A stretch of DNA of 64,000 bases from Psilocybe cubensis. Lineage: Eukaryota. The translations under genes were made by a program, and so were the position numbers. This document shows positions 7,252 through 64,000 of the stretch, in pieces. Position 1 is the stretch's first letter. Each line of letters starts with the position of its first letter. The notes under the pieces are model-generated. The model was given only the letters and a program-made list of their open reading frames with translations. It made no database searches and had not been told where the DNA came from. The stretch spans positions 1,798,001 through 1,862,000 of the forward strand of contig CM039010.1 in assembly GCA_017499595.2 (NCBI GenBank), in the 5' to 3' direction.

Positions 7252-7516
7252 TTTATCTTAGAGTACATATATCTCTTTTTATTTATTTATTCTCTTATTC
7301 ACGAAACGAAACGACATTCCTACTTGATTCCTACGATACTTCATGCAGCTAACGACAATCCACTCTTTTCTTCATCTATCTTGCGCTATGTATCAACAAT
7401 TATTCTTTCTTGTGATTGTATATACTTATGCTATTGAATGATAATTTCTTGTTCCCCTATATCTCTTGCTACTATCACATTTGTGTTGTAATGGTATCCT
7501 AGGATCAGGAAACAAC

Positions 7517-8475: not shown

Positions 8476-8882
8476 ACGAACGTTGATGATGTAGGTTTAT
8501 AAGATAGAGTGACGGTAGAATAAATAGTGATGTAATCATCATGTTTACAACCAAAGTTAATGCCATCTATCAATAATTTATCCAACAGAAAAAAGAAATG
8601 ATATTATCCACGTAGTTTGGAATTACAGATCAAAATGTATAACGATACAGAGAGCTTTAACGTGTAGAGGAAAACAACAGCAGCATAACAAGGCACATTT
8701 CTCTCAAGAGTCTACCCGCGCACGGAGACAAGGCAGAGCTTGAAGAAGGCTTGACCGAGGACAATAGCATATAGGGATGCAACAAGAAAAGTAGTAGAGA
8801 AGCGAGATAGATATGGAGAGAAAAAGAGGAGATAAAGAAACAAGAGACGGAAGAGATGAGATAGAGACGAGTAGAAAAAAAA

Positions 8883-11800: not shown

Positions 11801-13929
11801 AAATTCTATACGGATAGGAACTAGCCTTTCTGGGCGGTTAGCGTCTTCGGGGCTGATCTTCCTAGGCCTGTAAAATTTGGAACACGCTAAGCTAAGCACT
11901 CAAAACATGGAAGAAAACGGAGACTACGTACAACTTGAAGCCCTCTCTTCTTGTGCCCCTTCTGTTACTTCTACTGCTGCTAGTCGCACCTTTCGGTCTT
12001 GGATACCTGACGTCGAACCTTGGTGGATGCCTCTCTCTGTACTTGTTGAAATTGCCAGTGCCGTTTCCGACTGCGCCGCGCTCCCACCAGTTGGGGCCCG
12101 AAAGACCGCCAGGGGCGAAAACCTCCCGCGCTTCAGTGAGCATGGTTCTCTGCATCTGGCGCACTCGCTCCTCATACTCATTGTCAGTCTCCATCCATGA
12201 CTTAATTTGAGAGATCGTGGTGGGCGATAGTGGTGGAATCGTTGTTGTTGATGTTAGTAAAGGAACGAGAGTCACAGCGGTTGTTTTGGGATTCAAATTG
12301 GTGGATGCTGGGAGTGGAGGCAGAGGGGCAAGGTTGGAGGTTGTATTGGAGGTGCTGGTGTTATTGGGTACTGCCGGGGTGTTTGCGTTGATGGCTGGAG
12401 CAACCCCTGGAAGCAAGGACGATGAGGACGCGGAGGGCTGGATGCCGCCGTTGGGTATGCCCATCCCGCCGACTTGGGGTAGCGAGTTAGATGCCATGGA
12501 AGAGGTTGAAATGGATGGCGCCATGGGTTGAGGAGCACCACCGTGTGGACTGGAGGGCATGCCTCCTATTCCCATGTTCATCCCCATGCCCATTCCCGGT
12601 CGCATACCCATTGGACCTTGCGGTGTCGGCGGCAACGAGCCCTGGCGCATCATGGCTTGCGCTTGTGGGCCCATTTGAGGGGTTGGGGTGGACTGTTGAG
12701 GGGGTAATGAACCTTGCCGAATGGGTGTTTGTGGGCCAGACGGGATATGTGGACGATCGACGTTCATCCCACCCATGTTCATCCCACCCATTCCCCCGAT
12801 GTTGCTCGCCATGCCCATGGAGGACTGAGGGCGGGGCGAATTTCGCTGACCGTTCATTGCGCCGCCCATGCTGGCGTTGCTGACGCTGCCCATGCCCATG
12901 TTTCCAGGCATGTTCATGCCGTTCATGTTCATGCTCATGTTCATCGGGTTCATGGCGCCTGTGTTCATACCACCCATGCCAAGGCTGTCGTTGGAGACGC
13001 TCCTGGGAAGCCCTGGGGGTCCCATCATGCCGCCTGTTGGACCCATACCGGAAAGCCCCAATCCGCCACCGCCGCCACCGATACGCGGGCTGCCTGGGAT
13101 GGGACCAGGGCCGATTCCCATATTGGGAGGAACCATCTCGCCGGTGAGTTTGCGCTTTGCGCCGCGGTAAGGCGACCCGATGGTGGGGGAACCTGATGGA
13201 TTGGGCGGGATTGGGGTGCTGCTGGCTGAATACGGGGGTGCTTGCTGCCCAATGTGCATGCTGGGTTGTTGCTGTTGTTGTTGCTGCTGCTGTGGGTTGG
13301 GAGTGTTAAACATTTGCTGTGGCTGCTGTTGGGCCTGTGGGGGTTTGAAACCGTTAGGATTGTCGCCTCTCTGAGACTAGTATGGACAGATAAGTTTTTT
13401 AGAGTTTGAATAATTGAAGAAAACGATATACCATTCGACTCAAAGGGCGTTGACCACCCTGCCCCATCATATCGTGCATAGAGGTGGGAATGGTCGGAGA
13501 GCGGTGCGCCATGGCTGTACTGGGCCTGGAATGCTGGAGCTGCTGCTGCTGCTGCTGGGGTATACCAGGACCATGGCCTTGAGCTGTGGGTGGTCGTGGC
13601 GGAGGCGGAGGCATCATTTGATGTGACGAAGCCGAGCTGGAGGGGCGGTCGAAGTTCTGGGACGGGTTCATGTTCATCATGAGGCGCTCACGATCCATGT
13701 TCTGCTGCTGCTGCTGCTGTTGCTGGCGAAGATGGTGAATGTACTTTTGAACGAGGATCTGGCGCTCTTGCTGGGGGAGACCGGCGAAGTACTCCTGGGT
13801 AATGCCAGCGGCGGAGAGGAGGGCGGGGATGTTGACCTGTGCCTGGGGGGGCTGTTGGGGAGCATTGTTGGGGAAGGGACCTGTGTTTGGGTTGAAGCCA
13901 GAGGGCTTTTGGAAGGAGTTGGGATTCAT
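8883..13929 (-). CDS. SNF5: SNF5/SMARCB1-family SWI/SNF chromatin-remodelling subunit with a Q/M/P-rich N-terminus, a GATA-type zinc finger and a C-terminal C2H2-like finger; multi-exon
   Basis: Snf5 repeat 1 reads LVPIRIEFDVEHHKMRDTFIWNLN-DPIITPEVFAQSLVEDY. Repeat 2 reads DMRILIKLDIIVASIKLDDQFEWDLDNPNASPEEFAEVYTQELGLGGEF. WHCSNCGC..RRKGPLGDKSQCGTCG is GATA-like. The C-terminus has WRIKCLDCPGK..YTPGPGETLSNYEVHLKNRQH, with the stop at 8883-8885. Confidence 0.85.
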
Positions 13930-14395
13930 GGCCTTGTCGCGTGTCTTGACGCGTCGTGGTGTCGCTGTTGGGCTCCAGGTGACTCAGCACAACTGACCCA
14001 GACAGATGCCACCGATAAGCTGCTATTTCCTCTTTTATGACTCCCGCGATCCAAGGGAAACTGCGAATGAAAATCGACAATCAACGAAACAATGCCGTTC
14101 AATACTCTCCTCCTCGTCCCCCAATCCCTCTCACCGTCCCTTCAGGGCAGGTCTTTCTCTCTCAAGTCACGTGCTCTCTCCGTTGACTTCAAACGTGACT
14201 ATCGTGACTCTGAGGTAACGGTAGGATCTAGAATGGAATAGAATGAAGAACATATATGTATCTAACCAATAAGTAATCTAATCAAGGGGGTACTCATCAG
14301 GAAAATAGGCAAGAAGTAAAATAGATGGTAGATATGGAAGTAATGGGCTAGATAATGTACCATTCATTAGGAAAACAGACAAGGAATAGAACAAA

Positions 14396-16310: not shown

Positions 16311-17544
16311 AAAAAGCCTTCTATCTTTCTCAAACTGCTCTTATTGACAAAATCATTGCATCCTTTGGACAGGCCGATTCTCATCCCGTCTCTGTCCCCA
16401 TGGACCCAGGACTGAAACTTAGACAACCAGATCGATCCAAAATGTCCTGGAAAGATAAAGATCGCCTCGCAAAATTCCCATATCGATCCCTAGTCGGATG
16501 CCTTATCTACCTAACCGTTAGAACCCGCCCAGATATCTTATATGCCGTACAGCAATTGTCACAGTTCCTTGACGCATTCTCATATGCTCACTGGAATGCT
16601 GCAATACGCGTAGTCCGTTCCCTCAAGGGAACACAAAATTTGAAACTTAAGCTCAGAGGCAACAAAATCGACCTTATTGGATTCACCGACTCAGATTGGG
16701 CCAATTGCCTTGACACTCGTTGAAGCGTTGGCGGATATGGATTCTCACTGGAATCTGGTCTTGTATCTTGGTCAGCACGCAAACAAGCAACAGTAGCAAC
16801 ATCCTCCACAGAGGCTGAGTATGGCGCTGCCTTTAAAGCATCTAAGGAAGCAATTTGGATGTGTACCCTGCTGACAGAGATAAAATTCTCTCCATCTAAA
16901 GCTACCCCACTACTGTGCGATAACAACTCCGCGATTATACTTTCCGATGATCCCTCACACCATAACCGATCCAAATACTTCAACATTAAACACCATTTTC
17001 TTCGAGAACGCGTACAGAGCGGAGAAATACGCACAGCATATATCAACACAAAAGACAACGCAGCAAATATTTTCACCAAGGCACTCCATCCACAGCAATT
17101 CCTTCGGCTTCACAACATGATAGGTCTCTCTTAAAATTACCCCTTTCTTTCTCTTCTTTCTTATTCTTCTTCAATTATTTTACACCACGATTCCGTTCAA
17201 GATGGAGTACACATCTTATGGTGAGGAGGAGTGTTGATTTCCACCTAACGTGACTCCCCTCAATGTTTGACGTCATGTAACAAACACACCCTTTTCCACT
17301 GTAGATACAAAGCACCTTTATTACATTACATCATATATACAGGGTACGGAAGCTACCCAACACCTCAGTCCAATTATTCGTGACTGAGGTAAGCCCTTTT
17401 TCTATTGACTTAGTTAACTATTTTACTTACTGTACCTAGTCGTGGCATTGCCACTTTACCTTAGGTACAGATCATCTAATAAAGTCCAATTATTTGTGAC
17501 TGAGTCGTGGCATTGCTACTTTATCTTAGGTCTGGATTTCTACA
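16311..17544 (+). mobile_element. Ty1/Copia 3' fragment (family A): RT end, RNase H, PPT and 3' LTR
   Basis: Motifs YRSLVGCLIYL..TRPDI, GFTDSDWA, SWSARKQATVATSSTEAEY, LCDNNSAI and RSKYFNIKHHFLRE. An internal TGA lies at 16721. The PPT gaggaggag is followed by TGTTGA at 17232. Confidence 0.92.
17232..17544 (+). repeat. Copia family A LTR (TGTTGA..TCTACA) with an internal hairpin, introns and a spliced duplicate
   Basis: Follows the PPT and has TG..CA ends. The internal duplication is described in the findings. Confidence 0.85.
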
Positions 17545-17752
17545 TATTATAAAGGAAGGTTAAAGAATAAAGGTGACATCATATAGAAAAAGGATGAGTA
17601 AGACTAGAAATCATATAGAATTTACTAGAAAGAAGTGGAGCAAGAAGGCTATGATAAAAGAAATAAACTATCTAATCAGATAATTGATAAGATAATGAAA
17701 GGATACAATAAATCTGTGAAGATAAAGAAGGAAAACTGGGGAAACCCTGACA
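17545..17752. repeat. Partial copy of the LTR at 32185-32626, truncated on the left by the Copia A insertion
   Basis: About 200 bp closely similar to 32419-32626 and ending in CCCTGACA. Confidence 0.85.
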
Positions 17753-29479: not shown

Positions 29480-31302
29480 TATCAATGGATTTTGTGTATC
29501 AAGAAGAATGCAGCCGGGAAAATCAAAAAATATAAGGCACATCTAGTCATTAAAGGCTTCACTCAAATTGACAGCATAGACTATTATGAGACGTATGCAT
29601 CTATTGCTTGTTTTGCATCTTTTTAACTCTTTTTTGCTTTTGTTGTGCAGAATGACTGGATTGCAGACATTATCAACTTTGATTCAGCATATCTTAATAG
29701 TAAATTAGGGCCAAACCAGAAGGATTTTCTCAAACAGCCATCCAAGTTTGCTACTTGCAGCAGTTGTGACTGGGTTTGGCGGTTAAACAAAACATTATAC
29801 AGTTTGAAACAGGTTGCTAAAAACTAGTACAATACACTTTGTAAAGCTCTTGCTGATTTGGAGTTTGTAAAGATGGATACAGACTATGGAGTCTTTGTAA
29901 AGAAGATGAGCTCTAATATCATTATTCTTGCAGTACACATTGACAACTGCCTACTTGTTGGGAGCTCTAGAAAGCAAATTAACAAATTTAAAAAGCAAAT
30001 GAATCATATCTACAAGCTTACCAACTTAGGTGCCATGAATTAGCTCTTGGGGATCAAGATTACTCAAGATTTTGTCAACCATATTATTTCCCTATTCCAG
30101 GATGCGTACATTAATTTTCTTCTTGCACAATTCAATTTTAACAATCTGAAGTTGTCATCTATCCCTATGAATTACACAGCTACGCTCTCAAAATTGTAGT
30201 TCTCCACAAAAATTACAGACATCATTAAGATGCAGTAAATTCCATACTGTGAAGCGGTTGGATCCTTGATATATGCAGCAATGGAAACTTGTCCTGATAT
30301 TGCATTTGTAGTATCTACAGTGGCATAATTTTCCAAAAATCCAGATTGGGCTTATTGAGAGGCCATAAAGCAAATCTTTTGTTATTTATTAGGCACTTGC
30401 TTGTTACAATTAATGTATGGTAGCAAGAAACAAGGGGTGGAAGGGTTTATTGATACTAAGAGAGCATTTCAAGAGCACAAGTGTGCAATTTCCAAGTATA
30501 TTTTTATGATTGATGGAGGAACTGTTAGCTGGTCATTGAAGAAAGAAGAGTTACACTGTCAACTACCAAGGCAAAATATGTTACCCAAACTTACACTGAA
30601 AAGGAATCCATTTGGCTTTGTGAACTTATTACTCAGCTTTTTAGGCCACTTGACGGCTGAACTATTTTATTTTTTAATAGCAAATTGACTATTGCACTTG
30701 TGCAAGACAGATATTATCATGCATGCATAAAACACATTGATATTTGCTATCATTTTATCTACTATATCATCAAAAAGGGCATGATCAAGTTGATCTACTA
30801 ATCCACAAATAACATGACAGCTGACATTCTTACCAAGGTACTTTCTAGCATGAAGGCTAAACATTTTGCTACCACCTTCAGACTCAGCATAGTTTAAAAA
30901 GAGTATTGAATATTATTTCTAACTGTGCCTTTGTAATGCACGTCTTTTGTTTGATTAGATTTTATTTCCTGGTTTTTTTATTTCTCCGTGATGACCTCAA
31001 TATTGTCTAAACCATATGTAGATGGATGCATATATGGACAATATGTATATTGAGTAGGTTTGCATGGCTTGGGCATTTTCCCAGCCATTTTTTGTATCAC
31101 ATATACTATTCCATTTTGTATTAACGCCCCTTAGTCTATTCTACATTGACTGAGCTGGGTTGACTATTATTTTTACCAGTTCCCTTCACATATTGACTTT
31201 GTGTAGCCTTACATTTTGTTCAATAGGTACTATACATGAATAGAAGTCTATTCTACATTGACTGAGCCTTAAATTTTGTTCAATAGGGCTATATTATTCT
31301 AT
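29480..31302 (+). mobile_element. Ty1/Copia 3' fragment (family B), heavily decayed: RT, RNase H and LTR about 30904-31302
   Basis: Motifs KYKAHLVIKGFTQ..IDYYETYA, DFDSAYLNS-like NFDSAYLNS, LNKTLYSLKQ, LAVHIDN, DGGTVSWSLKK and KHIDICYHF. A decayed PPT is followed by TATTGA at 30904. Confidence 0.88.
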
Positions 31303-32184: not shown

Positions 32185-32626
32185 TGTCAGGGCAACATTA
32201 TAATCAGTATAACAAGGGCACCAACAAAGATCAAGCAAGAGAGAGAGCAGAGGAAGAGTAAGAGAGCAGAATGAGAATAAGAGGATAAGAGAGACTCAAT
32301 GATTCTAAAAAATTACACTAATGATAGTGGATATTCTAAGAGATTGAAGCTGAGACTACAGCTACCTACAAGTCCAGTATTTATACTCTAGAGCTATTCT
32401 AGAATATTCCCTATATTACATTATAAAGGAAGGTTAAAGAATAAAAGTGATATCATATGGAAAAAGGATGAGTAAGACTAGGAATCATATAGAATTTACT
32501 AGAAGAAAGTGGAGCAAGAAGACTATAATGAAAGAAATAAACTATCTAATCAGATAATTGATAAGATAATGAAAGAATAAGATAAATCTGTGAAGATAAA
32601 GAGGAAAAACTAGAAAAACCCTGACA
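32185..32626. repeat. LTR of 442 bp with 8-bp inverted termini TGTCAGGG..CCCTGACA
   Basis: Terminal inverted octamer and a partial copy at 17545-17752. No matching TSD (atcct versus tagac). Confidence 0.75.
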
Positions 32627-41870: not shown

Positions 41871-42189
41871 TCTAAAGTATTTTTTTCTATTTTTCTTTCA
41901 ATTCATAAACTTACAATCTTCATTTAGACAAGAAAAATTAAACAATATCATTTTCTACTTTATATATATAAATTGAAATGTTGATTCAAATTTTGTAATA
42001 TAATGTGTATCATTTTTTGGCATCCTGAACATCCTTGATAGTGTGATCCTTGAGTACCTAAGTCAATATATCTGTTTCTTGGCATCACCTTCCTGTGACA
42101 TGTCTTGATATATATAGAAAACATACATATGTTCATTGATATTAAACTGCAGTAATACGTGGTTTGATAGGAAAGGCGCACCATAGTAA

Positions 42190-42515
42190 TGCGCAGTTTG
42201 ATAGGGAGGGCGCAGTAGAGTGATGCACAGATTGATAGTGAAGGCCTACTGGAGTGATGCACAGATTGATAGGGATGGCCTACTGGAGTGATGTATAGTT
42301 TGATAGGGAAGGCGTACTGGAGTAATGCGCCAGGAATGGCCTATTCCAGTGTAGCGGAGTGCAGCACTACAGTTGGCCGCACTTTATACCACTCCAGTGT
42401 GATGTAACGTTCCATTGGACTCATGTATGACATAATAGGGGAGGCACTCCAGTGTGCTAAACATTGTACCACTCCAGTATGACGTGATATCTGTGATAGT
42501 AATGCATTACTGTGA
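42190..42515. repeat. Third CACTCCAGTG/ACTGGAGTG cluster with about 32-bp tandem units; putative element terminus
   Basis: tgatagggaaggc.tactggagtgatgcacaga is repeated about 4 times, and cactccagtg occurs at about 42390 and 42445. Confidence 0.7.
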
Positions 42516-45500: not shown

Positions 45501-45787
45501 TATAATGGTTGATAGTTGTTCTTTTTAACTAGAGTGCTGAGCCAGGAATAAAACACTTTAATGGCTCATATGGCTATATCAGTAGACTGTAATATGTTTG
45601 ATTAGGTTTGATAGCCTTTTCTGGTACTTTTATTGGCCTATGGGCTTGATGTCTATGTGTGTAAAGCCTTAGTAGGGTGACAATACTCTGTGTTGCAACT
45701 AGTAATGGTCAGATGTTTTATAGGGTATTTATTACTCTTGTTTATTTAGCTTATAAGTATAGCATGAGCACTATTTCTAGCTTGCTA

Positions 45788-47391
45788 CAGTGGGCAAAAA
45801 AACCGTTCGAGTGTTGGTCACATATAAAAAGATTAATTTATAACTTTGAAATTAAAAATGTTAAAAATATGAAATTATTCACAGATATACTATATGGTGT
45901 TAGCTAAAGGATGACATACTGATCATGTGATTTGTCCAAGAATTGACCAAACAGCAGCATACACAATTTGCTAAGTCATTCAAACAGTTTTTTTGCTAGT
46001 AATTTAAATGCTATAAACTATGTATTATCACATGACTTTGTTGATATACCAAACAACTATCAATAAAATCATGTGACTACATGTTGAATAGGTATATAAT
46101 AGCTACAACCAACCTCTTTATCCCCCAATCAAGCATGAAACCCCTCTCTAAAGCAACCATTGCTACTATTGTCTCTCTTCTTACTTCTGGTCACTCCTAT
46201 GCCTCTATCAAGGCCCAGACTGGAGCTAGTGCTGGTTCTATCACCAAGATTTGCCAAGACTACTGTCCTGGAGCAGTGGTTTCCCATGGAGGATGCCCAA
46301 AGAAGCTGACTGGTGCCAATATCACCTATACCAAGCGTGGAATTTGAACTAGACAAATCAAGAATGCTGTGCAAGCTGCCAAGTCTCTGGCTACTATTAA
46401 TGGCCAGAATATCAGTCCTCAAACAGTTAGGAATGCACTCAAATCAACTGGCATGGTCTCAGTGGCAAAACAAAAGAAGCCTTTGTTATCAAAAAAGCAT
46501 AGGAGGGCTAGATTGGAGTTTGCAGAAAGGCACTTGGAGTGGACTGTGGATGACTGGGCAAGGGTCTGGTGGTCAGATGAGACCAAAATTAACAGATTGG
46601 GTTCAGATGGCAGAGATCAGGTGTGGATAGACAAGGAAAACAGACAGAATCCCAGGAGGATCAAGCAAACTGTGAAGTTTGGAGGAGGAAACTTAATGAT
46701 ATGGGGTTGTATGAGATGGGAAGGAATTGGATTTGCCACTAGAATTGATGGGAAGATAGATGCTCAGTTATACACTGAGATCCTAGGTGATGAGCTCCTA
46801 AAATCCTTGGAGTGGTATGGTCAACAGGTAGAAGATATCCACTTTCAGCAAGACAATGACCCCAAGCACACCTCAAAATTGGCCAAGAAATGGTTTGAAG
46901 AGCAGAATTTTAGGGTCCTCATATGGCCTGCACAATCTCCAGATCTCAACCCCATTGAACATCTATGGGAATACCTCAAAAGAAGACTTAATGAATATGA
47001 AGTCCCACCAAAGGGTATCCATGAACTTTGGGAGAGGGTTGAGAAGGAATGGAATGGAATACCCAAGGAAGTGGTGCAGAATTTGATTGCTAGCATGCCT
47101 AGAAGGTGTGCAGCAGTGATTAAGGCCAAGGGTGGACATACAAAGTACTAGTAGATATGATTTATTGATACTCAAGTGTTTAGCAAAAAAACTGTTTGAA
47201 TGACTTAGCAAACTGTATATACTCCTGTTTGGTCAATTCTTGGAAAAATCACATGATCAGTGTGCCATCCTTTAGCTAATACCCTCTAGTATACCTGTGA
47301 ATAATCTCATATTTTTAACATTTTTAATTTCAAAGTTATAAATTAATCTTTTCATACATGACCAACACTTGAACGGTTTTTTTGCCCACTG
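45788..47391 (+). mobile_element. Tc1-family DNA transposon (DD34E) with 211-bp TIRs and TA flanks
   Basis: Ends read TA|CAGTGGGCAAAAAAACC..GGTTTTTTTGCCCACTG|TA. TIRs span 45788-45998 and 47181-47391. Confidence 0.95.
46135..47151 (+). pseudogene. Tc1 transposase with one in-frame TGA (46345-46347, probably from CGA)
   Basis: Motifs WWSDETK, FQQDNDPKH and WPAQSPDLNPIEHLW, with 34 residues between the second D and the E. The ORFs on either side of the stop are in frame. Confidence 0.92.
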
Positions 47392-47915
47392 TATCACCAA
47401 ATGGGACGGGGGTACTATACTTCCAGCTACCAGATGTAGCCCGAAGAGCAGCCGCCTCAGTACTCAAGTCAAAAGAGTGAGCGCCTGCATGAGGTAAAGG
47501 GATGTCAAGGGCATTGAGGATCTTTCTTCTTTTGCCTTTCATCCTCGCTGCTTCCATGACCTGAGAGAGGGACCCACACTTAATCTTCTCAATGGGGTTA
47601 GACGACATGGTCGACATATCTGTTACGGCCATTAGCATGAGACGCAGAAAGAAAAATCAAAACATCGAAGAGGAAACACACCTTGGATTGACCTGGTGCT
47701 CATCATATCACCCATATAGCGACGTACCTGGCTGTAGAACTCGTCGGAGCAAGTTGAAATAGACTCCTCTTGAGAAGGAGACATAAGGACAACGTTCCTT
47801 TTAGAGAAAGACTCCATCAGATACATGGATTTTGTGGTGCTGCGGTCGAATACCGCAAAACATGATTCTTCGGGACATGCTATGTGCAATGGAACTCCAT
47901 CGACGTGTACATTTA
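47392..47915 (-). pseudogene. Fragment of a second, CpG-rich JmjC-like gene, cut by the Tc1 end
   Basis: KRRKILNALDIPLP matches KILNVLDIP in the 38-kb copy. An intron with intact GT..CTAAT..AG signals lies at about 47622-47682. Confidence 0.6.
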
Positions 47916-50235: not shown

Positions 50236-52516
50236 TATACTGTATATAAACAAATCCTTCTCTTTAGTCAGACTTTGTAATTGGTCAAGTATTAGTCAAA
50301 GTTAGATTAAAGTTGACTTGAGGTAGACTTAAGTTCTTTAAAGCCTAAATCCAATCAAATTCAGATTTAGAATTTGGAATAAAGTTGAAAGCAAAATAGC
50401 AAACAAACTAATTAAATTGAGTATAAGGTAGCTAAGTAATCTAAGTTGATAATCAACTTGGGAATTCTAGTCTGAAACAAGAGGGGTTTATATACTACTA
50501 TTGGAATAAAAATAAACCACCAAAAATAAGTCATAAAAAATAAAAATAAAGAGTAAGAATAATGAATAAAAGAAATAAGGTTTAAGAGAAGGTAAGACAG
50601 ATGTCTGAAATAAGTTTACATACAAAGTTAGACTAAAGTTGGAATCCAGAAGCTGGGAGATAGAAGTCAGATGTGGAATTCAACTGACAATGTTGTATAA
50701 TAAAGTCAAGAGAGTATAGTATATCACAAGTCCTATTTATTTAATTTTGCTACTAAAAGTTATGTATTATCTTAGATTATTGGTTTTATTTTTAAATAAT
50801 TTTGCTTAAATTATTTCTATTCTTTTATCCATATAATATTTAATATAATATACTATTTATATTTGCTTATATTAATGCTTAAATTTATATAAACATATAA
50901 AAAACATGCTTATGTATAATACTTAATGAATAAATTGGTTAAAACCAAGTGGATAATCAATACAAGCAATTTAGAAATGTGCTTTCCATTTTGGCAAAAT
51001 CTTCTATATTTAGTAATCAAATTCAATTTCTACTTGTGGTATACTAGTCTCAATCTAGCCTCTTGGAATGATTGTGGCTATGCCAACCTATTTGGAACTA
51101 AAGTCCTCAAGAGAAATCATAACCAAAAGATCTAATACAATTTAACCATAATCCAAGGAATTAGAATTTGAAACTCTGCTAATGGCTCAAATTAGTAATA
51201 CAGAAGTATTTCTACCTTGCCTTCTCAATAACATTTTTCATTTATATTATTTTTTTGTAGTTTGTCTATAGAATAAGAAATATATAATTACTATTCTATA
51301 GTCTAATAAGAAAATAAAATATAACAAGCTATATAGAATATTATTTTAAGGAATAAAACTAGCAATAAAATAGACTAAATATCTGATAAATAATATGGTG
51401 CAGTGGAATTACTTTGATAAAAATAGATTTTTGCTCATCTTTAAAAATAAAAACCTACTTTAAATTTTATTTATCATATTTACTACCAAATAATTACTAA
51501 AACTAAAATTAAGCAGAATAGCAAGTTTAAGACTGAGCAGATTTGCAATATTCTTACTAAAAGGTCTATCAAAGTCTTGGATATGCGCCCTTTTCAATGA
51601 CAACTCAAAGCTGCAGGTATAATTTTATTTGGCAAGGATGTCATTTTTAATGTTGGTACTAGATATGAGAAATCTTTATATTTCTTGCTTTTTTTATTGG
51701 TAAGTAAAAAAGCCATTGCTCTTATAGTGACACTACTTTTTGCTCTGATAAAAGATTAGGTATATTTTCAAGTCAACAAGATATAGTATATATTTATATG
51801 TGAGTTATATTTACAGATTAATAATTTTAAATTGCCAGTAGTAGCTGTATGCAGTAAACAATGTCAAGGATTGGATATGAACAGATATATGAGGTAGATA
51901 CTATAATTAGTACTTTGAAAAATAAAAATGAAAAATTAGGGTAAATTAAACTATATGCTTTGTCTTTCTGCTCAAGTTGGGCTTTAAACAAAGCTTTTTG
52001 CTATTTTTAAAGTATTCAATCCAAATTTAAAATCATAATTACAATTTCTTTACTTATTATTGTGCAATTAAATATATAATATTTTGCTCAAAAAGCGCAC
52101 CTTAAATAGTACTCTTTAGGAGTTGTTGGTATGCACTCTTTTGACTTGTTAAAACTGCTCTTTATATCTCCCTCACTTTGCTATCTTATCAGATTAGATT
52201 ACTTTCTTCTTATCTTCATTTGCTCTCCAGACCATTCTAGACACATGATATTTATCAGTCCATAGACTGGTCTGGACCGGACCAGAGTAGACCTAGATAG
52301 ACCAGAGTACTTGAGTCTGCACAGTATATAGTTACTCTAGTTTACATCCTGAAGTCCCCAGTTACTCACTTCGGACTTCAGGTTAGTTTGTTAGCACTTT
52401 GCTCAATTCACCCAGTCACTCACTCAGACGCTTTGTGCTTGCTTATCCCTGCGCCCTACGTTGTATAATTAGGTCGCCGAGTAGCTCACACTGCTCCGAG
52501 CTCGCCTGCTTCAACA

Positions 52517-52528: not shown

Positions 52529-55500
52529 CGCGCTCTAAGCACTCCAATTCCGTGTTTTGCGAACCAAGTTGCTTTCTGCATAGTTTTTATAAAACGGTCA
52601 TTTTAGTCATTTTTGTTTTTTATCCTTTACCAGGCCCGGCCATACATTGCCGCTGCTAGTAGGGTTGAACGAGCATGCCTTACGCGACTTGTTATCCTCG
52701 GTTGAGCGGGCCCCCGTCGCCTAATCCCCGAGTTATTTCTAGTTAAAAGTAACCCTTTTAAATTAGGCTAGTTTAACTTCATCTTTTCAACTTGCGTTCG
52801 CATCGCACCCCAAGCTCCGGGTACCGCCTAGCTCGTTTCCACACATTATTACACATCCGTACACATCACTACCAACACTCGTATCCATCCGCTTATGTGT
52901 TCCTTCGCAATTTGCAATAATGACTTCTGATCCCCAAATCACTCTATTAAACTCAACCAACTACAACACCTGGGCAGGCCAGATGACCGCCTATCTCTAG
53001 TCTAAAGGGATATGACGCATTGTCAGCGGTGCTAGAGCACAGCCAACGCTCTCAGACAAGCCCACTGCTCAGGAGGAAGCTTTGCTTGAAACCTACTTTG
53101 AGCAGAGAGACAAAGCATGTGGTTTGATCTATCTCAGTTTGGAGAATGATCAGAGGGTTCATGTGGAAGCCATCAAGGATGATCCTATCAAGATGTAGGA
53201 TTCCCTCGCTGCTGTACATCAGCAAAAGCGCCCTGGCAACCGCTTTAATGCATATAATGATCTGTTCTCCATCCGAAAGGAGGAAGGTGAAAACCTTCAA
53301 ACCCTAATCAATAGAGTTGAGCAAGCCATCTTGCTAATTCAGCAGCTTTGCCTTAAAGGGTTTGATCTGGCTAAGCTTGATAAAGAGCTTGCTTCGCTTG
53401 CTTTGGTCAGGGCACTCCCAGAAGAGTACAGTTCATTTGCATCCTCACTTCTCCTTTTGGACAAGTTGGACAAGGCTACAATTCATCAAGCCTTTGTCAC
53501 AGAGGACATACAGCGACGTCGCCACGCTTCGGAGTTGCCTGCACTCGCCACTGCATTCCAGACCGCTCCAGCCCTTTCTGCATCCAAGCCCAAGTGCGCA
53601 TTTTGTGATATGACCAACCATGCAATGGACAAGTGTCACAAGTTCATTGCTGCGCAAAAGGAAGCAAGGGAGTGTGTCAAAGCGGCTCGCAAAGGCAACA
53701 GAGCAAACAAGGCCTCAGAGGCATTTAGTGAGGAAAAAGAGTCCAAGGAAATGAAATTTGCTGGAAATGCAAGTGCTCTTAATACCAATGTTCCCTCTTC
53801 CATTTCACCCCAAACTAATGACAATTGGATTGCAGACACAGGGGCAACTTCTCAAACCCCATCGCAATTGGGTTAAAAATTACACCCCCCTTCACATTCT
53901 AAGCCGATTAGTAGATGAAGAGTAAAGCTGCTGTGCTTCTTAAGTGCAAAAGCGATGCATTCAGTGCGTTCCAAACGTACAAAGCATGGGCTGAGAACAA
54001 ATTAGGCTTTAAGATCAAAGTGCTGCAGGATAACAAAGCTGGTGAATACATGTCAAATACTTTCATCAAATTCACTGACCAGTGTGGCATTGAGCGTCGT
54101 CATACAATGCAAAATCGCCCACAATAGAACGGAGTTGCAGAGTGTGCAAATCGCACCATAGCAAAACATGTTACTTCCATGCTCAATGAGGCTTGTGTTC
54201 CACCTTCATTTTGGGGTCGCTGTGGTGCAGCATACATGCATGTATGGAATCGTGTTCCTACAGCCTCTTTACCAGACAAGACTCCGTATGAGAGCTGGAA
54301 CAAGCGCAAACCTGATGTTAGTTATTTCAGGTTTTGGGTTGCCTTGCATATATTTATGCAGGGAGATAAGTGCAAATCGTTGCAGCCTCATATGGAAAAG
54401 TGTATCCTGGGGTGTCCACTGGCCCTATGCCAAAGTTTGACCTTCTTCCTACTTCTTCTGCAAGTGCACCACCTCCTAATTCAGGGGGGGACTCTAATGG
54501 CTTCAATTTTGATGATGATGAGGATGACTCTACTCTAATTCCTGTCATTGAGCCAGAGATGCCTATTGCACCTCCTGAATAGCTAGCTGAACTACCATAG
54601 CCTCAGGCCATTTCTGAACCTCCTCCTAAGCCTGCATGTTGCCAGCATGCTCCAGTTGATCCTGCAACGTTGAGACGCACTATTTGCGTTCCTAAGCAGC
54701 CTGGTGAATGGTGGAAGGTCTCACATGATCCTGAACCACCTGAAGCCAATGATCCTGGATTTGAAGAGGTGGAGTTTGCTGGGCTTGTTTCAAGCACAGA
54801 TCTGCGCACATTCAAACAGGCAATGAAAGCACCTGATGTGCACACGTGGGAAGAGGCTGCTATCACAGAATTCAATCTATTGCAGCACAACCAAACTTGG
54901 GAGTGAGTTGAGCTCCCTCCGGGTCAAAAGGCAATTGGCTGTGGTTGGGTCTTTAAAATCAAGCAAAATGCAGATGGCAGTATAGAGCGCTACAAGGCTC
55001 GTATTGTTGCCAAGGGCTACAGTCAGCGCCCTGGCATTGATTACCATGAGGTCTTTGCTCCTACTTTCCGCCCTGCTACTTTCCGCTTGATTGTGGCTCT
55101 GGCCGCCATTGGAGACTTGAAGTTGCGCTCTGTTGATATTACAGCTGCTTTCACTAAAGGTGACCTAGACGAGGAGATTTACATGTTATAACCTGAAGGA
55201 TTTTACCAAGGTGGTCCTAACATGGTTTTAAAGCTCAAAAAGTCGCTCTATGGTCTTAAGCAGTCTGCACGTCAATGGAACCTCAAGTTGCATGAGGCAT
55301 TGTCAGATATGGGGTTCAAGCTTATAGAATCAGATCGCTCTGTCTATATCTATTCAGATGGAGATGTGAAGATTATTGTTCCCATTTACATTGATGACAT
55401 TACCTTTGCCTCCAAATCGAACGCCACCATAGATAGAGCTGTTAAGCAGCAAGCTGCGCATTTTGAACTCCGTGATCTGGGTCCTACACAGTATTTACTT

Positions 55501-56108
55501 GGTGTTGCCATTGAGCGAGATATGGCTGCTAAAACCTTTTCCTTGCATCAGCGTCAGTATATCCTCGATATGCTTGATACATATGGCATGACTGATTCTA
55601 ATCCGGTCAAAACACCTATGGTTGTGGGCACTGTTCTATCCAAGGCAGATGGACCTTAGAATGGAGATGAGGTGGAATTTATGCGAAATGTTCCCTACTT
55701 CAATGCAGTTGGCTCCTTGCAGTATCTAGCCACCATGACCCGTCCTGACATTGCTTTTACTGTGTCCTATCTGGCACACTTCAACTCCAATCCTGGGCCT
55801 AAGCATTGGGCTGCGATTAAACATTTATTCCGCTACCTCAGAGGCACTCTGGATTACAAGTTGACTTATTCTGGCGCTGTGGGCCATGATAACTTTGTCA
55901 TTTACACTGATGCTGCACATGGTGATTGTGTAGATACTAGACGCTCTACGAGTGGTTATTTGACCATTCTAGCTGGAGGTGCTATTGGCTGGGCAAGCAA
56001 ACTCCAAACTGTTGTAACTCTGTCTACTATTGAGGCAGAATATATTGCTGCGGTGGAGGCAGCCAAGGAGATTGTGTGGATGCGCAATATTCTTGAGGAG
56101 TTTGGCTA

Positions 56109-57979
56109 CATGGCCGAACCTAAGACTGCGTCAAATCGGGGTGCAACAAACAGCTGCTGGTCGAGGTTAAAGTCTTGCGGTTGACCGGAGTTTATCGGCA
56201 TATTTACTAAATTTGAAAACCTCCATGATACTCAGAATAATATATGAAATTTCCAAAGTCTTGCTGAAACTATGTTCAATCTGAGTTTTTGACCTTGGTC
56301 TAACCCAACTAATTGCTGCTGCCGGCACAATGGCCTCCAGACACGATATCCCAGACCCTGCAGGTATGAGTGACATCATTCAAATTGCTTATTCAATTAC
56401 CTATATCCCAACCTCCACTTTAGTCTTCCGGTGCGTTGACGCCGCTGGCCACACTCTCCACTATATCTGTCGAATATGCAGCAATGGCAAACTATTTCTT
56501 GCCAACAACTGCTCATGACACATATTTTTGATTTAACAGCTACATTGAGGAGTCTTTTTTATAGGACAACAAAAAGTTCAACAGGTATTCTACAACCACC
56601 GGCGTCCTTGGATTATCATCGAGAGATTCTTCTGCACATCCTTTGCCGTCAACTGCTCCCACCGCAACATCAAGCCGCTCAACCCTGGTTAGCACACCAT
56701 CAAATCCTTTCATTCAAGCACCCAGCACAGATTCTGCCAGCAGCAACTGGATTTCAGTGATGCTTAGCTCTCAGGCAATGAATGAGTAGAGTTAAAAATG
56801 TAGTAAATATTGTATCGAAAGCTCAATTCTATGCAATTTTTATGTCTGCCCATTCGACTCCCAGTATTGAGCCCCTGAGCCACTGTTGATATCTATTTGG
56901 TACAAGGTACCATGGCTCGGGCATTTTCGCGTGGTTACTCTTATCACCCGATGACCATGTTCTCTGCCCCCCCTTCCCCTTTGCAGGCTGATTGGCACAT
57001 TGTCAGTGTCATTAGACTGAATTTTTATCCGTTGTGCTGCTGAAGCACAAACATCTGCACGTTGGAAAGATCCAACCTCTCAATCTGTGAGAGTGTGCTG
57101 AACAGTGCAATGTTCTTTCATATTTTTTTTCTTTGCCCCGCTCTATTCTATGTTTTGGTCACCATAAACACCTGTATGTTGGAAAGATCCAACCTCCCGA
57201 CTTGTGGGAGTGTGCTGAGCAGTATAGTTTTTTTATCATTCATTGCAGGCCGGAATGTGGCTGCTTTCGTCCCTCCCATGCTTGCTTAGCTCTGTTTGGG
57301 ACTATTTCTTGCAAAGTGAGTAGCTTATTTTAGTTTGTGGGTTTGCATTTTGCTTAACCGCATCTTCATTGCAGTCTTGCTCAGGTGCGGCTTAGAAGTT
57401 AGGATGGTTAGAAGGCTCAGGACTGAAAGGTACGACAATTAACTCTTTATCCATCAACCTTATCTCATATGGTTTCCTATGCAGTGTTTTGCTCTCATCC
57501 AGTTCAATCATGCTTTCCAGGAGGATATGCTAGATGGGCTGGTCTGGGTGGCAGGAGGATGGTGTAGATGCTGGGTGCTGCATAGCGTATAAGATAGGTG
57601 TTTACAGGAGGTTTCAGAAACTTTTATACTACTCTGTACCCTGTAGAATACAATAAATTGTTTCTTACTTGCATATAGTCCCATACCTAAGCATATAACC
57701 ACAAAATGACGGTTTTCTATAGCATAAACGATGCCCACAGCCTCAAAAAAACCCATTCTATAAAAAGAAATACTTGACCTCAGGAATTTCAGACGGCTTC
57801 AGACCAAAGTCTAATATGCATGAGCACATGCGGTTGACCTATGAGGTCATGGGTCAATACCAAGGCATCAAGATTTGGAATTTCCGACGTCTAACATTCT
57901 GCAGTGATTCCGGTGTTTGACTAGGATTTGACTACAGTCCCCGTGACTAGGGTCTGACCTTGCCAACCGTCTGGCTGTG
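56109..57979. mobile_element. Non-autonomous DNA-transposon-like insertion with CAC(G)GCC-type ends and a 2-bp TA duplication, within the Copia RNase H
   Basis: Reads tttggcTA|catggcc...ggctgtg|TAtacaatc, whereas the uninterrupted copy reads tttggctacacagtc. It contains a short spliced ORF with YICRIC and a 2-unit repeat at 57050-57225. Confidence 0.75.
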
Positions 57980-58492
57980 TATACAATCACTGAGCCCTCT
58001 GTACTACATATGGACAACCAGTCATCTATCAGTGGTTCCAAAAATCCAGAGCACTATAGACGGATGAAGCACCTTGACTTGCGCCATTATTGGCTTAGGG
58101 ATGCTATTGGTGTTGGAAAGATTTCTCCTTCTTATATTCCTACTGATCAGCAAGCTGCTGATATTCTTACCAAACCCCTCTTACCTCCCAAAGTGCACTT
58201 TTATAGAGATAAAATGGGTCTCAAACTTTAATTTTTCTTTCTCTGTTTTGCTTTATTTTCTTTGTTCTGGAGACTTGTCAGAACAGGGGGGAGTATTAAA
58301 ACTGCTTTCTGTGTCTCCCTCACATTTCTATATCTTATATAGTTTACATCCTAGTTTGTTAGCACTCTGCTCAATTCCCCCAGTTACTTACTTTGGACTT
58401 TAGATGCTTTGTGCTCGTTTACACCCGTGCTCTACGTTCTATAACTAGGTTGCCAAGTAACTCACACTGCCCCAAGCTTGCCTGCTTTAACA

Positions 58493-59420
58493 ACAAGTTT
58501 ACCCTTGCACTCCACAACCTCCTCAGGATTTCTGATAATGTGTCTACTGTGTTCCAACTGCAGACTGACAGCCAAACCAAATGCATTAACCAAAAAGTTG
58601 AGCAGTTCTTGCGCATGTTCTGTCATCAACACCAATCCAACTGGACTAAATGGCTGGCATGTGCCAAGTTTTCCATTAACAATAAGCTTCTACCAGTTAC
58701 TCCCCATTCTTTCTCAACTTTGGTTGTAACCTCCACTGCCTACTGCAGCCAATTTATCAATTTTCTTTGCATGTTAAACAACCCAACAAATTTGCTATTT
58801 GCTGCTCAAGCTATGGCATAGTCTTTTAACAAGTTACATGCCAAACCACCTTTACTAGATGTTAACAACCTGATATTCCTTGATATCTGTGATATCAAGA
58901 CCACAAAACCTTGCAAAAAACTGGATGACAAACACTATGGCTCTTTTAAAATTACTCAACATATTGAAATCCATTTGTACAAACTTGTTCTACCTCCGGA
59001 GTGGCTTATTCATGATGTTTTAGGTCCACATTTCAAAACTACACCCATACAAACATCTCACCTTTTCAAACTAGCCTTGTGTGGGAGACACCTCCTCAAT
59101 TGCATACAATATACCTCAATATGCTGTTGCATTAGTTATCAACCATAGAGACTTGCAATACACAATGCAATTTTTTGTAATTTTAAAAGGTTCAAACACT
59201 CCTATATGGGACACTAAAGAGGTGATCCTAACAACCTTATCCTCACCTACCTTGCCAATCTGCCATTACATTTCACAAATTTGTCTTAGAAAGGAGATGA
59301 TGTTAGGATCACCCAACATGACATTATTTTAGACAGACAGTTTCTCATTTGTACTTCTAATTCCCTTTATGAGTAATTATGTAGCTACCACTTTAGGACC
59401 GCTCTACATACATAATGCAG
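58493..59420 (+). mobile_element. Ty3/Gypsy integrase remnant with a probable PPT and LTR start at 59301
   Basis: STVFQLQTDSQTKCINQKVEQFLRMF..NWTKWL..FSINN (decayed HPQTDGQTE motif) and KKLDDKHYGSFKI..YKLVLP..IHDVF. Confidence 0.8.
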
Positions 59421-59725: not shown

Positions 59726-60103
59726 TGTTAAAACTGCTCTCCATGTCTCCCTCACTTTGTTATCTTATCAGATTAGATTACTTTCTTCTTATCTTCATTT
59801 GCTCTCCAGACCATTCTAGACACATGATATTTATCAGTCCATAGACTGGTCTGGACCGGACCAGAGTAGACCTAGGTAGACCAGAATACTTGAGTCTACA
59901 TAGTATATAGTCACTCTAGTTTACATCCTGAAGTCCCCAGTTACTCACTTTGGACTTCAGGTTAGTTTGTTAGCACTTTGCTCAATTCACTCAGTTACTC
60001 ACTTGGGACTTCAGACGCTTCGTGCTCGCTTATCCCTGCGCCCTACGTTCTATAACTAGGTCGCCGAGTAGCTCACACTGCCCCGAGCTCGCCTGCTTCA
60101 ACA
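59726..60103 (+). mobile_element. Solo LTR of Copia family C (378 bp) with 5-bp TSD ATATT
   Basis: Reads ATATT|TGTTAAAAC..TTCAACA|ATATT and matches 52147-52516. Confidence 0.95.
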
Positions 60104-60492: not shown

Positions 60493-63400
60493 TGTTGAAG
60501 CAGGCGAGCTTGGGGCAGTGTGAGCTACTCGGAGACCTAATTATAGAACGTAGGGCACAGGAATAAGCGAGCACGAAGCGTCTGAAGTCCGAAGAGAGTA
60601 ACTGGGTGAATTGAGCAAAGTGCTAACAAACTAACCTGAAGTCCAAAGTGAGTAACTGGGGACTTCAGGATGTAAACTAAAGTGCCTATATACTGTATAA
60701 ACTCAAGTACTCTGGTCTACCTAGGTCTACTCTGGTCCGGTCCAGACTAGTCTATGGACTGATAAATATCATGTGTCAAGAATGGTCTGGAGAGCAAATG
60801 AAGATAAGAAGAAAGTAATGCAATCTGATAAGATAGCAAAGTGAGGGAAACATAGAGAGCAGTTTTAACACTCCCCCCTGTTCTGACAAGTCTCCAGAAC
60901 AAAGAAAAATAACGCAAAACAGAGAAAGAAAGATTAAAGTTTGAGACCCATTTTATCTCTACAAAAGTCCACTTTGGGAGGTGAGAGGGGTTTGGTGAGA
61001 ATATCAGCAGCTTGCTGATCAGTAGGAATATAAGAAGGAGAAATCTTTCCAACACCAACAGCATCCCTAAGCCAATAATAGCACAAATCAAGGTGCTTCA
61101 TCCGTCCATGGTGCTCTGGATTCTTGGAAACACTGATAGATGACTGGTTGTCCATATGCAGCACAGAGGGCTTAGTGACTGTGTAGCCAAACTCCTCAAG
61201 GATATTGCGCATCCACACAATCTCCTTGGCTGCCTCCACCGCAGCAATATACTCTGCCTCAGTAGTAGACAGAGTTACAACAGTTTGGAGTTTGCTTGCC
61301 CAGCCAATAGCACCTCCAGCTGGAACGGTCAAATAACCACTCGTAGAGCGTCCAGTATCTACACAATCACCATGTGCAGCATCAGTGTAGGTGACAAAGT
61401 TATTATGGCCCACAGCGCCAGAATAAGTCAACTTGTAATCCAGAGTGCCTCTGAGGTAGCGGAATAAATGTTTAATCGCAGCCCAATGCTTAGGCCCAGG
61501 ATTGGAGTTGAAGTGTGCCAGATAGGACACAGTAAAAGCAATGTCAGGACGGGTCATGGTGGCTAGATACTGCAAGGAGCCAACTGCATTGAGGTAGGGA
61601 ACATTTCGCATAAATTCCACCTCATCTCCATTCTGAGGTCCATCTGCCTTGGACAGAACAGTGCCCACAACCATAGGTGTTTTGACCGGATTAGAATCAG
61701 TCATGCCATATGTATCAAGCATATCGAGGATATACTGACGCTGATGCAAGGAAAAGGTTTTAGCAGCCATATCTCGCTCAATGGCAACACCAAGTAAATA
61801 CTGTGTAGGACCCAGATCACGGAGTTCAAAATGCGCAGCTTGCTGCTTAACAGCTCTATCTATGGTGGCGTTCGATTTGGAGGCAAAGGTAATGTCATCA
61901 ATGTAAATGGGAACAATAATCTTCACATCTCCATCTGAATAGATATAGACAGAGCGATCTGATTCTATAAGCTTGAACCCCATATCTGACAATGCCTCAT
62001 GCAACTTGAGGTTCCATTGACGTGCAGACTGCTTAAGACCATAGAGCGACTTTTTGAGCTTTAAAACCATGTTAGGACCACCTTGGTAAAATCCTTCAGG
62101 TTATAACATGTAAATCTCCTCGTCTAGGTCACCTTTAGTGAAAGCAGCTGTAATATCAACAGAGCGCAACTTCAAGTCTCCAATGGCGGCCAGAGCCACA
62201 ATCAAGCGGAAAGTAGCAGGGCGGAAAGTAGGAGCAAAGACCTCATGGTAATCAATGCCAGGGCGCTGACTGTAGCCCTTGGCAACAATACGAGCCTTGT
62301 AGCGCTCTATACTGCCATCTGCATTTTGCTTGATTTTAAAGACCCAACCACAGCCAATTGCCTTTTGACCCGGAGGGAGCTCAACTCACTCCCAAGTTTG
62401 GTTGTGCTGCAATAGATTGAATTCTGTGATAGCAGCCTCTTCCCACGTGTGCACATCAGGTGCTTTCATTGCCTGTTTGAATGTGCGCAGATCTGTGCTT
62501 GAAACAAGCCCAGCAAACTCCACCTCTTCAAATCCAGGATCATTGGCTTCAGGTGGTTCAGGATCATGTGAGACCTTCCACCATTCACCAGGCTGCTTAG
62601 GAACGCAAATAGTGCGTCTCAACGTTGCAGGATCAACTGGAGCATGCTGGCAACATGCAGGCTTAGGAGGAGGTTCAGAAATGGCCTGAGGCTATGGTAG
62701 TTCAGCTAGCTATTCAGGAGGTGCAATAGGCATCTCTGGCTCAATGACAGGAATTAGAGTAGAGTCATCCTCATCATCATCAAAATTGAAGCCATTAGAG
62801 TCCCCCCCTGAATTAGGAGGTGGTGCACTTGCAGAAGAAGTAGGAAGAAGGTCAAACTTTGGCATAGGGCCAGTGGACACCCCAGGATACACTTTTCCAT
62901 ATGAGGCTGCAACGATTTGCACTTATCTCCCTGCATAAATATATGCAAGGCAACCCAAAACCTGAAATAACTAACATCAGGTTTGCGCTTGTTCCAGCTC
63001 TCATACGGAGTCTTGTCTGGTAAAGAGGCTGTAGGAACACGATTCCATACATGCATGTATGCTGCACCACAGCGACCCCAAAATGAAGGTGGAACACAAG
63101 CCTCATTGAGCATGGAAGTAACATGTTTTGCTATGGTGCGATTTGCACACTCTGCAACTCCGTTCTATTGTGGGCGATTTTGCATTGTATGACGACGCTC
63201 AATGCCACACTGGTCAGTGAATTTGATGAAAGTATTTGACATGTATTCACCAGCTTTGTTATCCTGCAGCACTTTGATCTTAAAGCCTAATTTGTTCTCA
63301 GCCCATGCTTTGTACGTTTGGAACGCACTGAATGCATCGCTTTTGCACTTAAGAAGCACAGCAGCTTTACTCTTCATCTACTAATCGGCTTAGAATGTGA

Positions 63401-64000
63401 AGGGGGGTGTAATTTTTAACCCAATTGCGATGGGGTTTGAGAAGTTGCCCCTGTGTCTGCAATCCAATTGTCATTAGTTTGGGGTGAAATGGAAGAGGGA
63501 ACATTGGTATTAAGAGCATTTGCATTTCCAGCAAATTTCATTTCCTTGGACTCTTTTTCCTCACTAAATGCCTCTGAGGCCTTGTTTGCTCTGTTGCCTT
63601 TGCGAGCCGCTTTGACACACTCCCTTGCTTCCTTTTGCGCAGCAATGAACTTGTGACACTTGTCCATTGCATGGTTGGTCATATCACAAAATGCGCACTT
63701 GGGCTTGGATGCAGAAAGGGCTGGAGCGGTCTGGAATGCAGTGGCGAGTGCAGGCAACTCCGAAGCGTGGCGACGTCGCTGTATGTCCTCTGTGACAAAG
63801 GCTTGATGAATTGTAGCCTTGTCCAACTTGTCCAAAAGAAGAAGTGAGGATGCAAATGAACTGTATTCTTCTGGGAGTGCCCTGACCAGAGCAAGCAAAG
63901 CAAGCTCTTCATCAAGCTTAGCCAGATCAAACCCTTTAAGGCAAAGCTGCTGAATTAGCAAGATGGCTTGCTCAACTCTATTGATTAGGGTTTGAAGGTT
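60493..64000 (-). mobile_element. Second Copia family C copy in inverted orientation: 3' LTR 60493-60870; 5' end outside the window
   Basis: Reverse complement of about 53290-56110 plus an uninterrupted RNase H (ORF 60934-62070). PPT at 60871-60879. Confidence 0.95.

Follow-up and report, generated by a model that had tools for sequence, protein, structure and literature searches.

The sequence comparison presented here makes it very probable that the LTRs of an Agaricomycete-type Ty1/Copia clade contain a conserved cis-acting functional module. In this module a short segment (A) is followed by a stretch (x) and by a second copy of the segment (A'), and x and A' together have the appearance of a small intron whose tail repeats the sequence in front of it. 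We describe the module in a 64,000-nucleotide stretch of Psilocybe cubensis DNA (contig CM039010.1, positions 1,798,001 to 1,862,000; hereafter the window) and in 28 further families. Its anatomy, its conservation, the covariation of its hairpin and the concerted evolution of A and A' are seen directly in the DNA.

The module in a solo LTR

The elements in question are Ty1/Copia (Pseudoviridae) LTR retrotransposons. A Copia-type reverse transcriptase (RVT_2, Pfam, E 1.8e-28) lies at 60934-62070 on the minus strand, full-length relatives contain rve (PF00665) together with RVT_2, and we found TG..CA termini, a 5-bp target duplication, a polypurine tract and a PBS. The nearest named pol relatives come from Agaricomycetes, for example Psilocybe, Taiwanofungus and Sparassis. 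The clearest copy of the module sits in an LTR of Copia family 3 with the following parts.

59726-60103, plus strand: solo LTR of Copia family 3, 378 bp, TG..CA ends
59904-59909, plus strand: TATATA box, starting 34 nt ahead of A
59927-59936, plus strand: 5' arm of the hairpin, putatively in U3 and upstream of the transcription start
59938-59960, plus strand: A, putative first exon, 23 nt
59952-59961, plus strand: 3' arm of the hairpin, made up of the last 9 nt of A and the first base of the candidate intron
59961-60014, plus strand: intron-like unit of 54 nt, x plus A'
59961-59991, plus strand: x, first part of the 54-nt unit, beginning GTTAGT
59992-60014, plus strand: A', with CTCAC and a closing CAG
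60015-60103, plus strand: U5-like remainder of the LTR past A', 89 nt, followed by the PBS in full elements

We assign this copy as a solo LTR because it combines TG..CA termini with a 5-bp target duplication (ATATT at 59721-25 and 60104-08). A and A' differ solely at position 14 of their 23 nt (22 of 23 identical) and begin 54 nt from one another. Where two copies agree throughout, a spliced product would read the same as A'-U5, as the earlier reading pointed out. GT at 59961-62 directly follows A, and AG at 60013-14 closes A'. RNA containing both arms folds into a hairpin of -18.1 kcal/mol (z -4.86) that none of 200 shuffled sequences equals in stability; RNA that begins just past the 5' arm is unstructured (z +1.41). 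The sequence-only reading from which this study started had placed the TATATA, the 10-bp stem, the 23-nt repeat, the donor GT and the terminal AG at exactly these coordinates. In the solo LTR x also resembles the start of the LTR, a likeness that is absent from other families and that we judged to be chance.

Family 3 is represented by further copies in the window.

60493-60870, minus strand: 3' LTR of the minus-strand element, with TATA at 60687-92, arm at 60660-69, A at 60636-58 and the unit at 60582-60635
52147-52516, plus strand: 5' LTR of the plus-strand element, with arm at 52348-57, A at 52359-81, x at 52382-52412 and A' at 52413-27
52517-27, plus strand: PBS of the plus-strand element, GGTTATGGGCC
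about 58294-58493, plus strand: heavily deleted LTR copy

The first of these has a polypurine tract adjoining 60870 on its right and carries TATA, arm, A and unit intact, as the earlier reading had it. That reading also described the copy at 52348-52427 as partly eroded, and A' (52413-27) indeed lacks 8 nt through an internal deletion. The copy at 58294-58493 has lost the TATA, A, the beginning of x and the greater part of U3. Of its 5' arm just the three leading bases survive, and A' and the remainder of x are still present. There is no obvious microhomology at its deletion junction.

The internal parts of the two elements (53292-56110 of the plus-strand element and 61182-64000 of the minus-strand element) are 99% identical over 2.8 kb. 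Full-length family 3 LTR copies are about 94% alike, the deleted 3' LTR of the plus-strand element is only 86% like the others, and the flanks of this element (TGACT and ACAAG) form no target duplication. The contrast between 99% internal and 94% or 86% LTR identity, together with the unmatched flanks, points to a recombinant or gene-converted element.

The window as a whole passes from a gene-bearing part (1-14000, 47-58% GC), with an SNF5-domain gene at 10904-11899 on the minus strand, to an adjoining transposon-rich part (14000-52000, 29-47% GC). The latter includes a Tc1/mariner-type transposase ORF at 46369-47151 (DDE_3, HTH_Tnp_Tc3_2), enclosed by 216-nt inverted repeats at 45783-45998 and 47181-47396 that are 92% complementary, and a tandem array with a 34-nt period at 42146-42328, within an AT-rich stretch that has no recognizable genes. 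A Pfam search with 25 ORFs of the AT-rich part gave one weak sub-threshold match and nothing retroelement-like. Several old LTR copies in the window contain many C-to-T changes.

Related loci and splice-like signals

A pol fragment was aligned with 16 relatives, and the alignment was used to scan metagenome contigs, where it identified 79 related Copia loci with 52-75% amino-acid identity. A scan of viral contigs with the same alignment returned no relatives. When the solo LTR was compared with the 79 loci by blastn, 22 loci matched, all of them at LTR positions 173-295 (59898-60020). Because the matches are confined to these positions, the module from TATA to A' is, by this measure, the sole part of the LTR held by selection. 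No A/A' repeat was detected in 14 loci of this clade whose sequence extends 400 nt or more beyond pol.

The comparisons below cover 29 families including that of the window: 21 with a common 9-nt core and 8 with a wholly different A. Two clusters were left out on account of tandem repeats in the flank of locus L058; L047, a degenerate three-copy LTR, was retained even though it fails to show G[T/C] after A. The 28 outside families derive from metagenome contigs, which may be chimeric, and they share ancestry. That the motif should be common in related LTRs was a test set beforehand, and its recurrence in 28 further families from the 79 loci bears the expectation out. The PBS GGTTATGGGCC follows the LTR in 20 of the 29 families and is nearly invariant in the clade; we take it to match the anticodon arm of the initiator tRNA. 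The stretch from A' to the PBS goes down to 15 nt in three families.

The first base after A is G in 28 of 29 families and the second is T in 22 and C in 6. Beyond this dinucleotide, A at +3 (19/29), G at +5 (17/29) and T at +6 (21/29) follow the donor consensus. GC donors require a strong context, and all six read GCAAGT or GCATGT. Half of the GT donors are weak, since 11 of 22 have no G at +5. A ends with CAG in 22 families and TAG in 6, and A' with CAG in 21 and TAG in 6, so that YAG closes A' in 27 of 29. CTNAY occurs within A' in 26 families, and in 21 its A lies 13 nt from the 3' end. Together x and A' measure 49-63 nt, and A itself 21-33 nt; most introns of fungi are about 50-70 nt in length. 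Identity between families is just 31% at positions 9-20 of x, a random-like level. The unit thus appears to bear splice signals at its ends and to drift freely in its middle. In 19 of 29 families an AATA-type motif lies within the final 16 nt of x, directly ahead of A'; at about 25-30 nt before the end of A' it would fit a poly(A) signal if the RNA ended near A'.

Two features of a U2-type spliceosomal intron, the GT or GC donor and the branch motif with YAG, are present, and x plus A' is probably a real intron. We counted against this assignment that exon A would be very short and that the branch A is merely 13 nt from the 3' end. An ab initio look at ORF junctions in the host genes of the window was noisy and yielded one plausible intron candidate of 51 nt, to which we gave no weight.

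The left edge of A and the hairpin

In 12 of the 29 families a strict TATAWA box begins 30-36 nt ahead of A; the remaining strict matches, in 3 families, all lie 58-59 nt ahead of it. The best-paired 5' arm stops short of the duplicated segment, by 1-35 nt, in 28 of 29 families, which upholds the earlier proposal that the duplication begins just past this arm. In the exception, L006, the stem is no better than those of shuffled sequences and a 10-nt arm match reaches 1 nt into A; in window family 1, described below, the arm extends 4 nt into A. The left edge of A thus behaves like a transcription start, although we infer the start itself from position. If A begins at the transcription start, the 5' arm would be transcribed only in the 3' copy of the LTR.

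The hairpin contains at least 9 contiguous pairs in 15 of 29 families, and for 14 of those at most 4 of 200 shuffles equal the observed length. In the other 14 families the stem has at most 8 contiguous pairs and is short or interrupted, and several of these stems are no better than shuffles. The 3' arm always covers the exon-intron junction. Its sequence falls into 12 classes, and the arms vary between families yet remain complementary. When upstream regions were re-paired with foreign arms, none of 20000 permutations reached the observed total. The total was again unreached with one representative per arm class, a comparison that favors the observed value in that the best member of each class was picked. 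These results argue that the hairpin covaries among families.

Concerted evolution of A and A'

A and A' of the same family differ at 0.28 positions per 20 nt, and the A segments of different families at 7.97. In each of the 29 families the A closest to A' is its own, with 11 ties. Because the original detection had required similar repeats, we repeated the comparison free of this bias on 34 LTRs with two 9-nt cores, leaving the 13 nt upstream of the cores unconstrained. These 13 nt differ at two positions or fewer in 33 of 34 LTRs, and at none in 27; distinct families differ at 5.5 of 13. Since the repeats match within families despite divergence between families, A' appears to have been copied from A, or A from A', repeatedly in each lineage. 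Reverse transcription of an unspliced template would copy A from A and A' from A'. Spliced RNA is the simplest source for a sequence in which A precedes U5.

A two-step version in families 1 and 2

Copia remnants outside family 3 were located by tblastn. Pol remnants of families 1 and 2 occupy 16313-17128 and 29486-30867, and each family is represented by one old copy. Their LTRs contain a longer arrangement, in which a second segment (B) and its copy (B') accompany A and A'.

17233-17544, plus strand: LTR of Copia family 1, two-step version, with TATATA at 17334-39
17367-88, plus strand: A of family 1
17389-17439, plus strand: piece of 51 nt, GTAAGC..TAG, family 1
17440-64, plus strand: B of family 1
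17465-82, plus strand: x of family 1
17483-17504, plus strand: A' of family 1
17505-29, plus strand: B' of family 1
17530-44, plus strand: last 15 nt of the family 1 LTR
31133-31286, plus strand: LTR module of the degraded Copia family 2
31133-54, plus strand: A of family 2
31155-31206, plus strand: piece of 52 nt, CT..AG, family 2
31207-26, plus strand: B of family 2
31227-44, plus strand: x of family 2
31245-66, plus strand: A' of family 2
31267-86, plus strand: B' of family 2

In both families A' and B' are contiguous, whereas A and B are split by the 51-52-nt piece. This piece is delimited by GT..AG in family 1 and by CT..AG in family 2, where the first donor accordingly reads CT. Its flanks contain no repeat able to delete it in either family. 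The second copy A'B' looks like the first copy minus an intron; together with the copying of A into A', this speaks indirectly for removal of such units from RNA. A and B differ strongly between families 1 and 2, and each matches its own A' or B'. The hairpin over the first junction has z -5.33 in family 1 and z -3.32 in family 2, and a TATA-like box lies about 33 nt before A in both. Searching the family 1 and 2 LTRs against the 79 related loci gave no matches. The earlier reading had counted three of three Copia families in the window as showing the pattern. Families 1 and 2 do show it in the two-step version, but the three are not independent origins, because the layout is inherited within the clade. 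The shared layout suggests that the diverged families descend from a two-copy state.

Family 1 also has an AATAAA at 17476-82, just before A'. A 207-nt repeat at 17546-17752, which begins two bases beyond the family 1 LTR, recurs 15 kb away at 32420-32626 with 92% identity; it is probably the terminus of a different element, with the Copia copy inserted into it or beside it.

Variants and loss of the unit

A census of LTR variants gave 50 two-copy LTRs, one degenerate three-copy LTR and 7 in which A adjoins U5 and the intron is precisely absent (L003, L013, the 3' LTR of L027, L043, L045, L059 and L061). The existence of elements with intron-less LTRs means that the module is not indispensable. 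Two unrelated LTRs, L029 (near 1839) and the window copy at 58294-58493, have lost arm and A and retain the 3' part of x with A'. Six single matches in this census were set aside as chance occurrences within coding or unrelated DNA.

L027 is one Copia element with the target duplication TTCCC and LTRs at 3434-3624 and 7188-7336. The two LTRs are alike by eye, but a 51-nt unit in the 5' LTR is precisely absent from the 3' LTR. Either the unit can be lost without a spliced template, between the direct repeats in the course of reverse transcription or later, or the metagenome contig is a chimera. We counted against the model developed below that a precise loss of x and A' is also expected from direct-repeat deletion.

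A possible mechanism and its alternatives

How could such a module work, and how could an intron persist in it? For the splicing event, the transcription start, the poly(A) site and the route of strand transfer we infer the following scheme. The module would be ordered as TATA, U3 arm, transcription start, exon A, an intron of 49-63 nt with a GT or GC donor, a short U5 and the PBS. Exon A of 21-33 nt would contribute its 3' end, together with the donor, to the second arm of the hairpin, and the last 21-33 nt of the intron (A') would copy exon A and bear the branch motif and YAG. At the 5' end of the RNA the first arm would be untranscribed and the donor free, so that the intron is removed and A is joined to U5. 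In the 3' copy of the LTR the transcribed arm would pair with the donor, and the intron would be retained. Minus-strand strong-stop DNA made from the spliced 5' end, the complement of A-U5, could then anneal to A' in the unspliced 3' copy. Synthesis onward through x, A and U3 would rebuild the LTR with A' rewritten from A. Annealing to A instead, or splicing of both copies, would give progeny LTRs without the intron. The intron may also hold or adjoin a poly(A) signal that is silenced at the 5' end by intron removal or by U1 binding.

We lean towards the full model, from TATA, U3 arm and start through exon A and an intron ending in a copy of it to strand transfer from a spliced template. The combination of an intron spliced at the 5' end and retained at the 3' end, with A' as landing pad, R reduced to the 21-33-nt exon and a U3 hairpin that selects the copy to be spliced, is plausible, with our judgment inclining slightly against it. 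That the hairpin is a switch between the two LTR copies we propose only tentatively. The link to polyadenylation is less likely still and forms the most speculative part of the scheme.

Two alternatives dispense with splicing. In one, the donor-like site, lying upstream of a poly(A) signal, would bind U1 snRNP without being spliced and thereby silence polyadenylation at the 5' end; the hairpin would mask the 3' copy, and A' would serve as a second landing site for strand transfer instead of an acceptor. Binding of U1 near a poly(A) signal does block polyadenylation in HIV-1 and papillomavirus, and the conservation of a hairpin-covered donor, the AATA that 19 of 29 families carry within the final 16 nt of x and the weakness of half of the GT donors would all suit such a role. 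We nevertheless consider it rather unlikely, as it leaves unexplained the conserved CTNAY and YAG within A', the narrow range of 49-63 nt, the rewriting of A' from A in every family and the precise absence of 51-52 nt from A'B' in families 1 and 2. The other regards A and A' as direct repeats in R which, with a hairpin, aid minus-strand transfer, dimerization or packaging; misaligned template switching would keep the repeats alike, and GT and AG would be by-products of the stem sequence. Template switching is known to remove direct repeats from retroelement RNA, which agrees with the 7 one-copy LTRs beside 50 two-copy LTRs and with the asymmetric loss in L027; in several families, moreover, the T or C at +2 pairs with the base before the arm. 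Misaligned switching should, however, produce one or three copies and never a renewed pair, and only one degenerate three-copy LTR was found. The YAG/GY junction persists where the stem sequence changes wholly (12 arm classes), and positions +3 to +6 match the donor consensus even though they lie outside the stem. A pure direct-repeat function is therefore quite unlikely.

Introns can also be born by tandem duplication of an AG|GT segment: both splice sites then come from the direct repeat, and splicing returns the sequence to its state before the duplication. A single gain of this kind, by tandem duplication or by an insertion that doubles its target, would make A equal to A' simply because the event is recent, and splicing of the unit described here would likewise restore the ancestral sequence. 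Direct repeats near splice sites have been reported (PMC11782384). Such births are one-off events in genes after which the repeats drift apart; here the repeat is renewed per family, and A' equals its own A in families whose A differs at about 8 of 20 positions and whose x is unrelated. This match across diverged families would demand many independent identical events or continual copying, and a target duplication of 21-33 nt would be unusual, which makes a single gain very unlikely. Neutral local duplication with GT, AG and an inverted repeat by chance would be conceivable from the window by itself, where the three to four copies resemble one another too closely to reveal selection. It is scarcely credible in view of 29 families that share the layout, 28 of them with G[T/C] after A, the covariation of the hairpin and the position of the module in the only conserved part of the LTR. 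We rejected a chance origin on these grounds, that is, recurrence in 28 further families, covariation and sole conservation within the LTR.

Relation to known systems

Retroviruses have splice donors in or near R, and the donor suppresses the 5' poly(A) site, as in HIV-1; in HTLV-1 and foamy viruses donors lie within R. They resemble the proposed mechanism in that a donor near the cap helps to distinguish the 5' from the 3' R and that U3 in the 3' transcript alters processing. They differ in using a distant acceptor to make subgenomic spliced RNAs, and have neither a complete intron in the LTR nor an exon copy. Ty1/Copia elements are known to use the host spliceosome, with Drosophila copia, BARE1 and Arabidopsis EVD as examples. 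In contrast to the proposed mechanism, their intron lies outside the LTR, splicing removes pol to give a gag-only mRNA, and the spliced RNA is not the replication template.

Penelope from Drosophila virilis has a 75-bp intron located 46 bp downstream of the transcription start in its terminal regulatory region (PMC2377424). According to the accessible part of that report, the intron is missing from most transcripts but kept in transposed copies, and its deletion abolishes reporter expression. Penelope shares with our model a small intron near the start that is retained through transposition. It belongs to a different class of retroelements, with a telomerase-like RT and a GIY-YIG nuclease and no true LTR cycle, and the accessible text mentions neither an exon copy at the intron end nor a hairpin at the donor (PMC2377424). 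Introns within LTRs have been described in maize, where long reads show spliced transcripts contained in the LTR; the authors of this 2026 preprint, in the part of the work available, claim the first evidence for such introns (10.64898/2026.05.08.723830). These plant introns average about 1.3 kb and occur in lncRNA-like transcripts confined to the LTR, and strand transfer, exon duplication and a hairpin go unmentioned in that part (10.64898/2026.05.08.723830). None of the three cases, Penelope, retroviral donors and maize LTR introns, has a copy of exon 1 at the intron tail. A full-text literature search, which largely leaves out subscription journals, returned no description of such a layout.

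Implications

An LTR retroelement has to begin its transcript in one repeat and finish it in another of the same sequence, and introns do not normally survive reverse transcription. Should the model be correct, this clade would have found a new way of handling its 5' and 3' repeats differently despite their identity, and of carrying an intron through the replication cycle. An LTR element could then use a spliced leader, with any gain in expression or poly(A) control that follows, without losing the intron, and splicing would be tied directly to the first strand transfer. The order of TATA, arm, exon and G[T/C]...exon copy provides a signature that can be searched for in any fungal genome.
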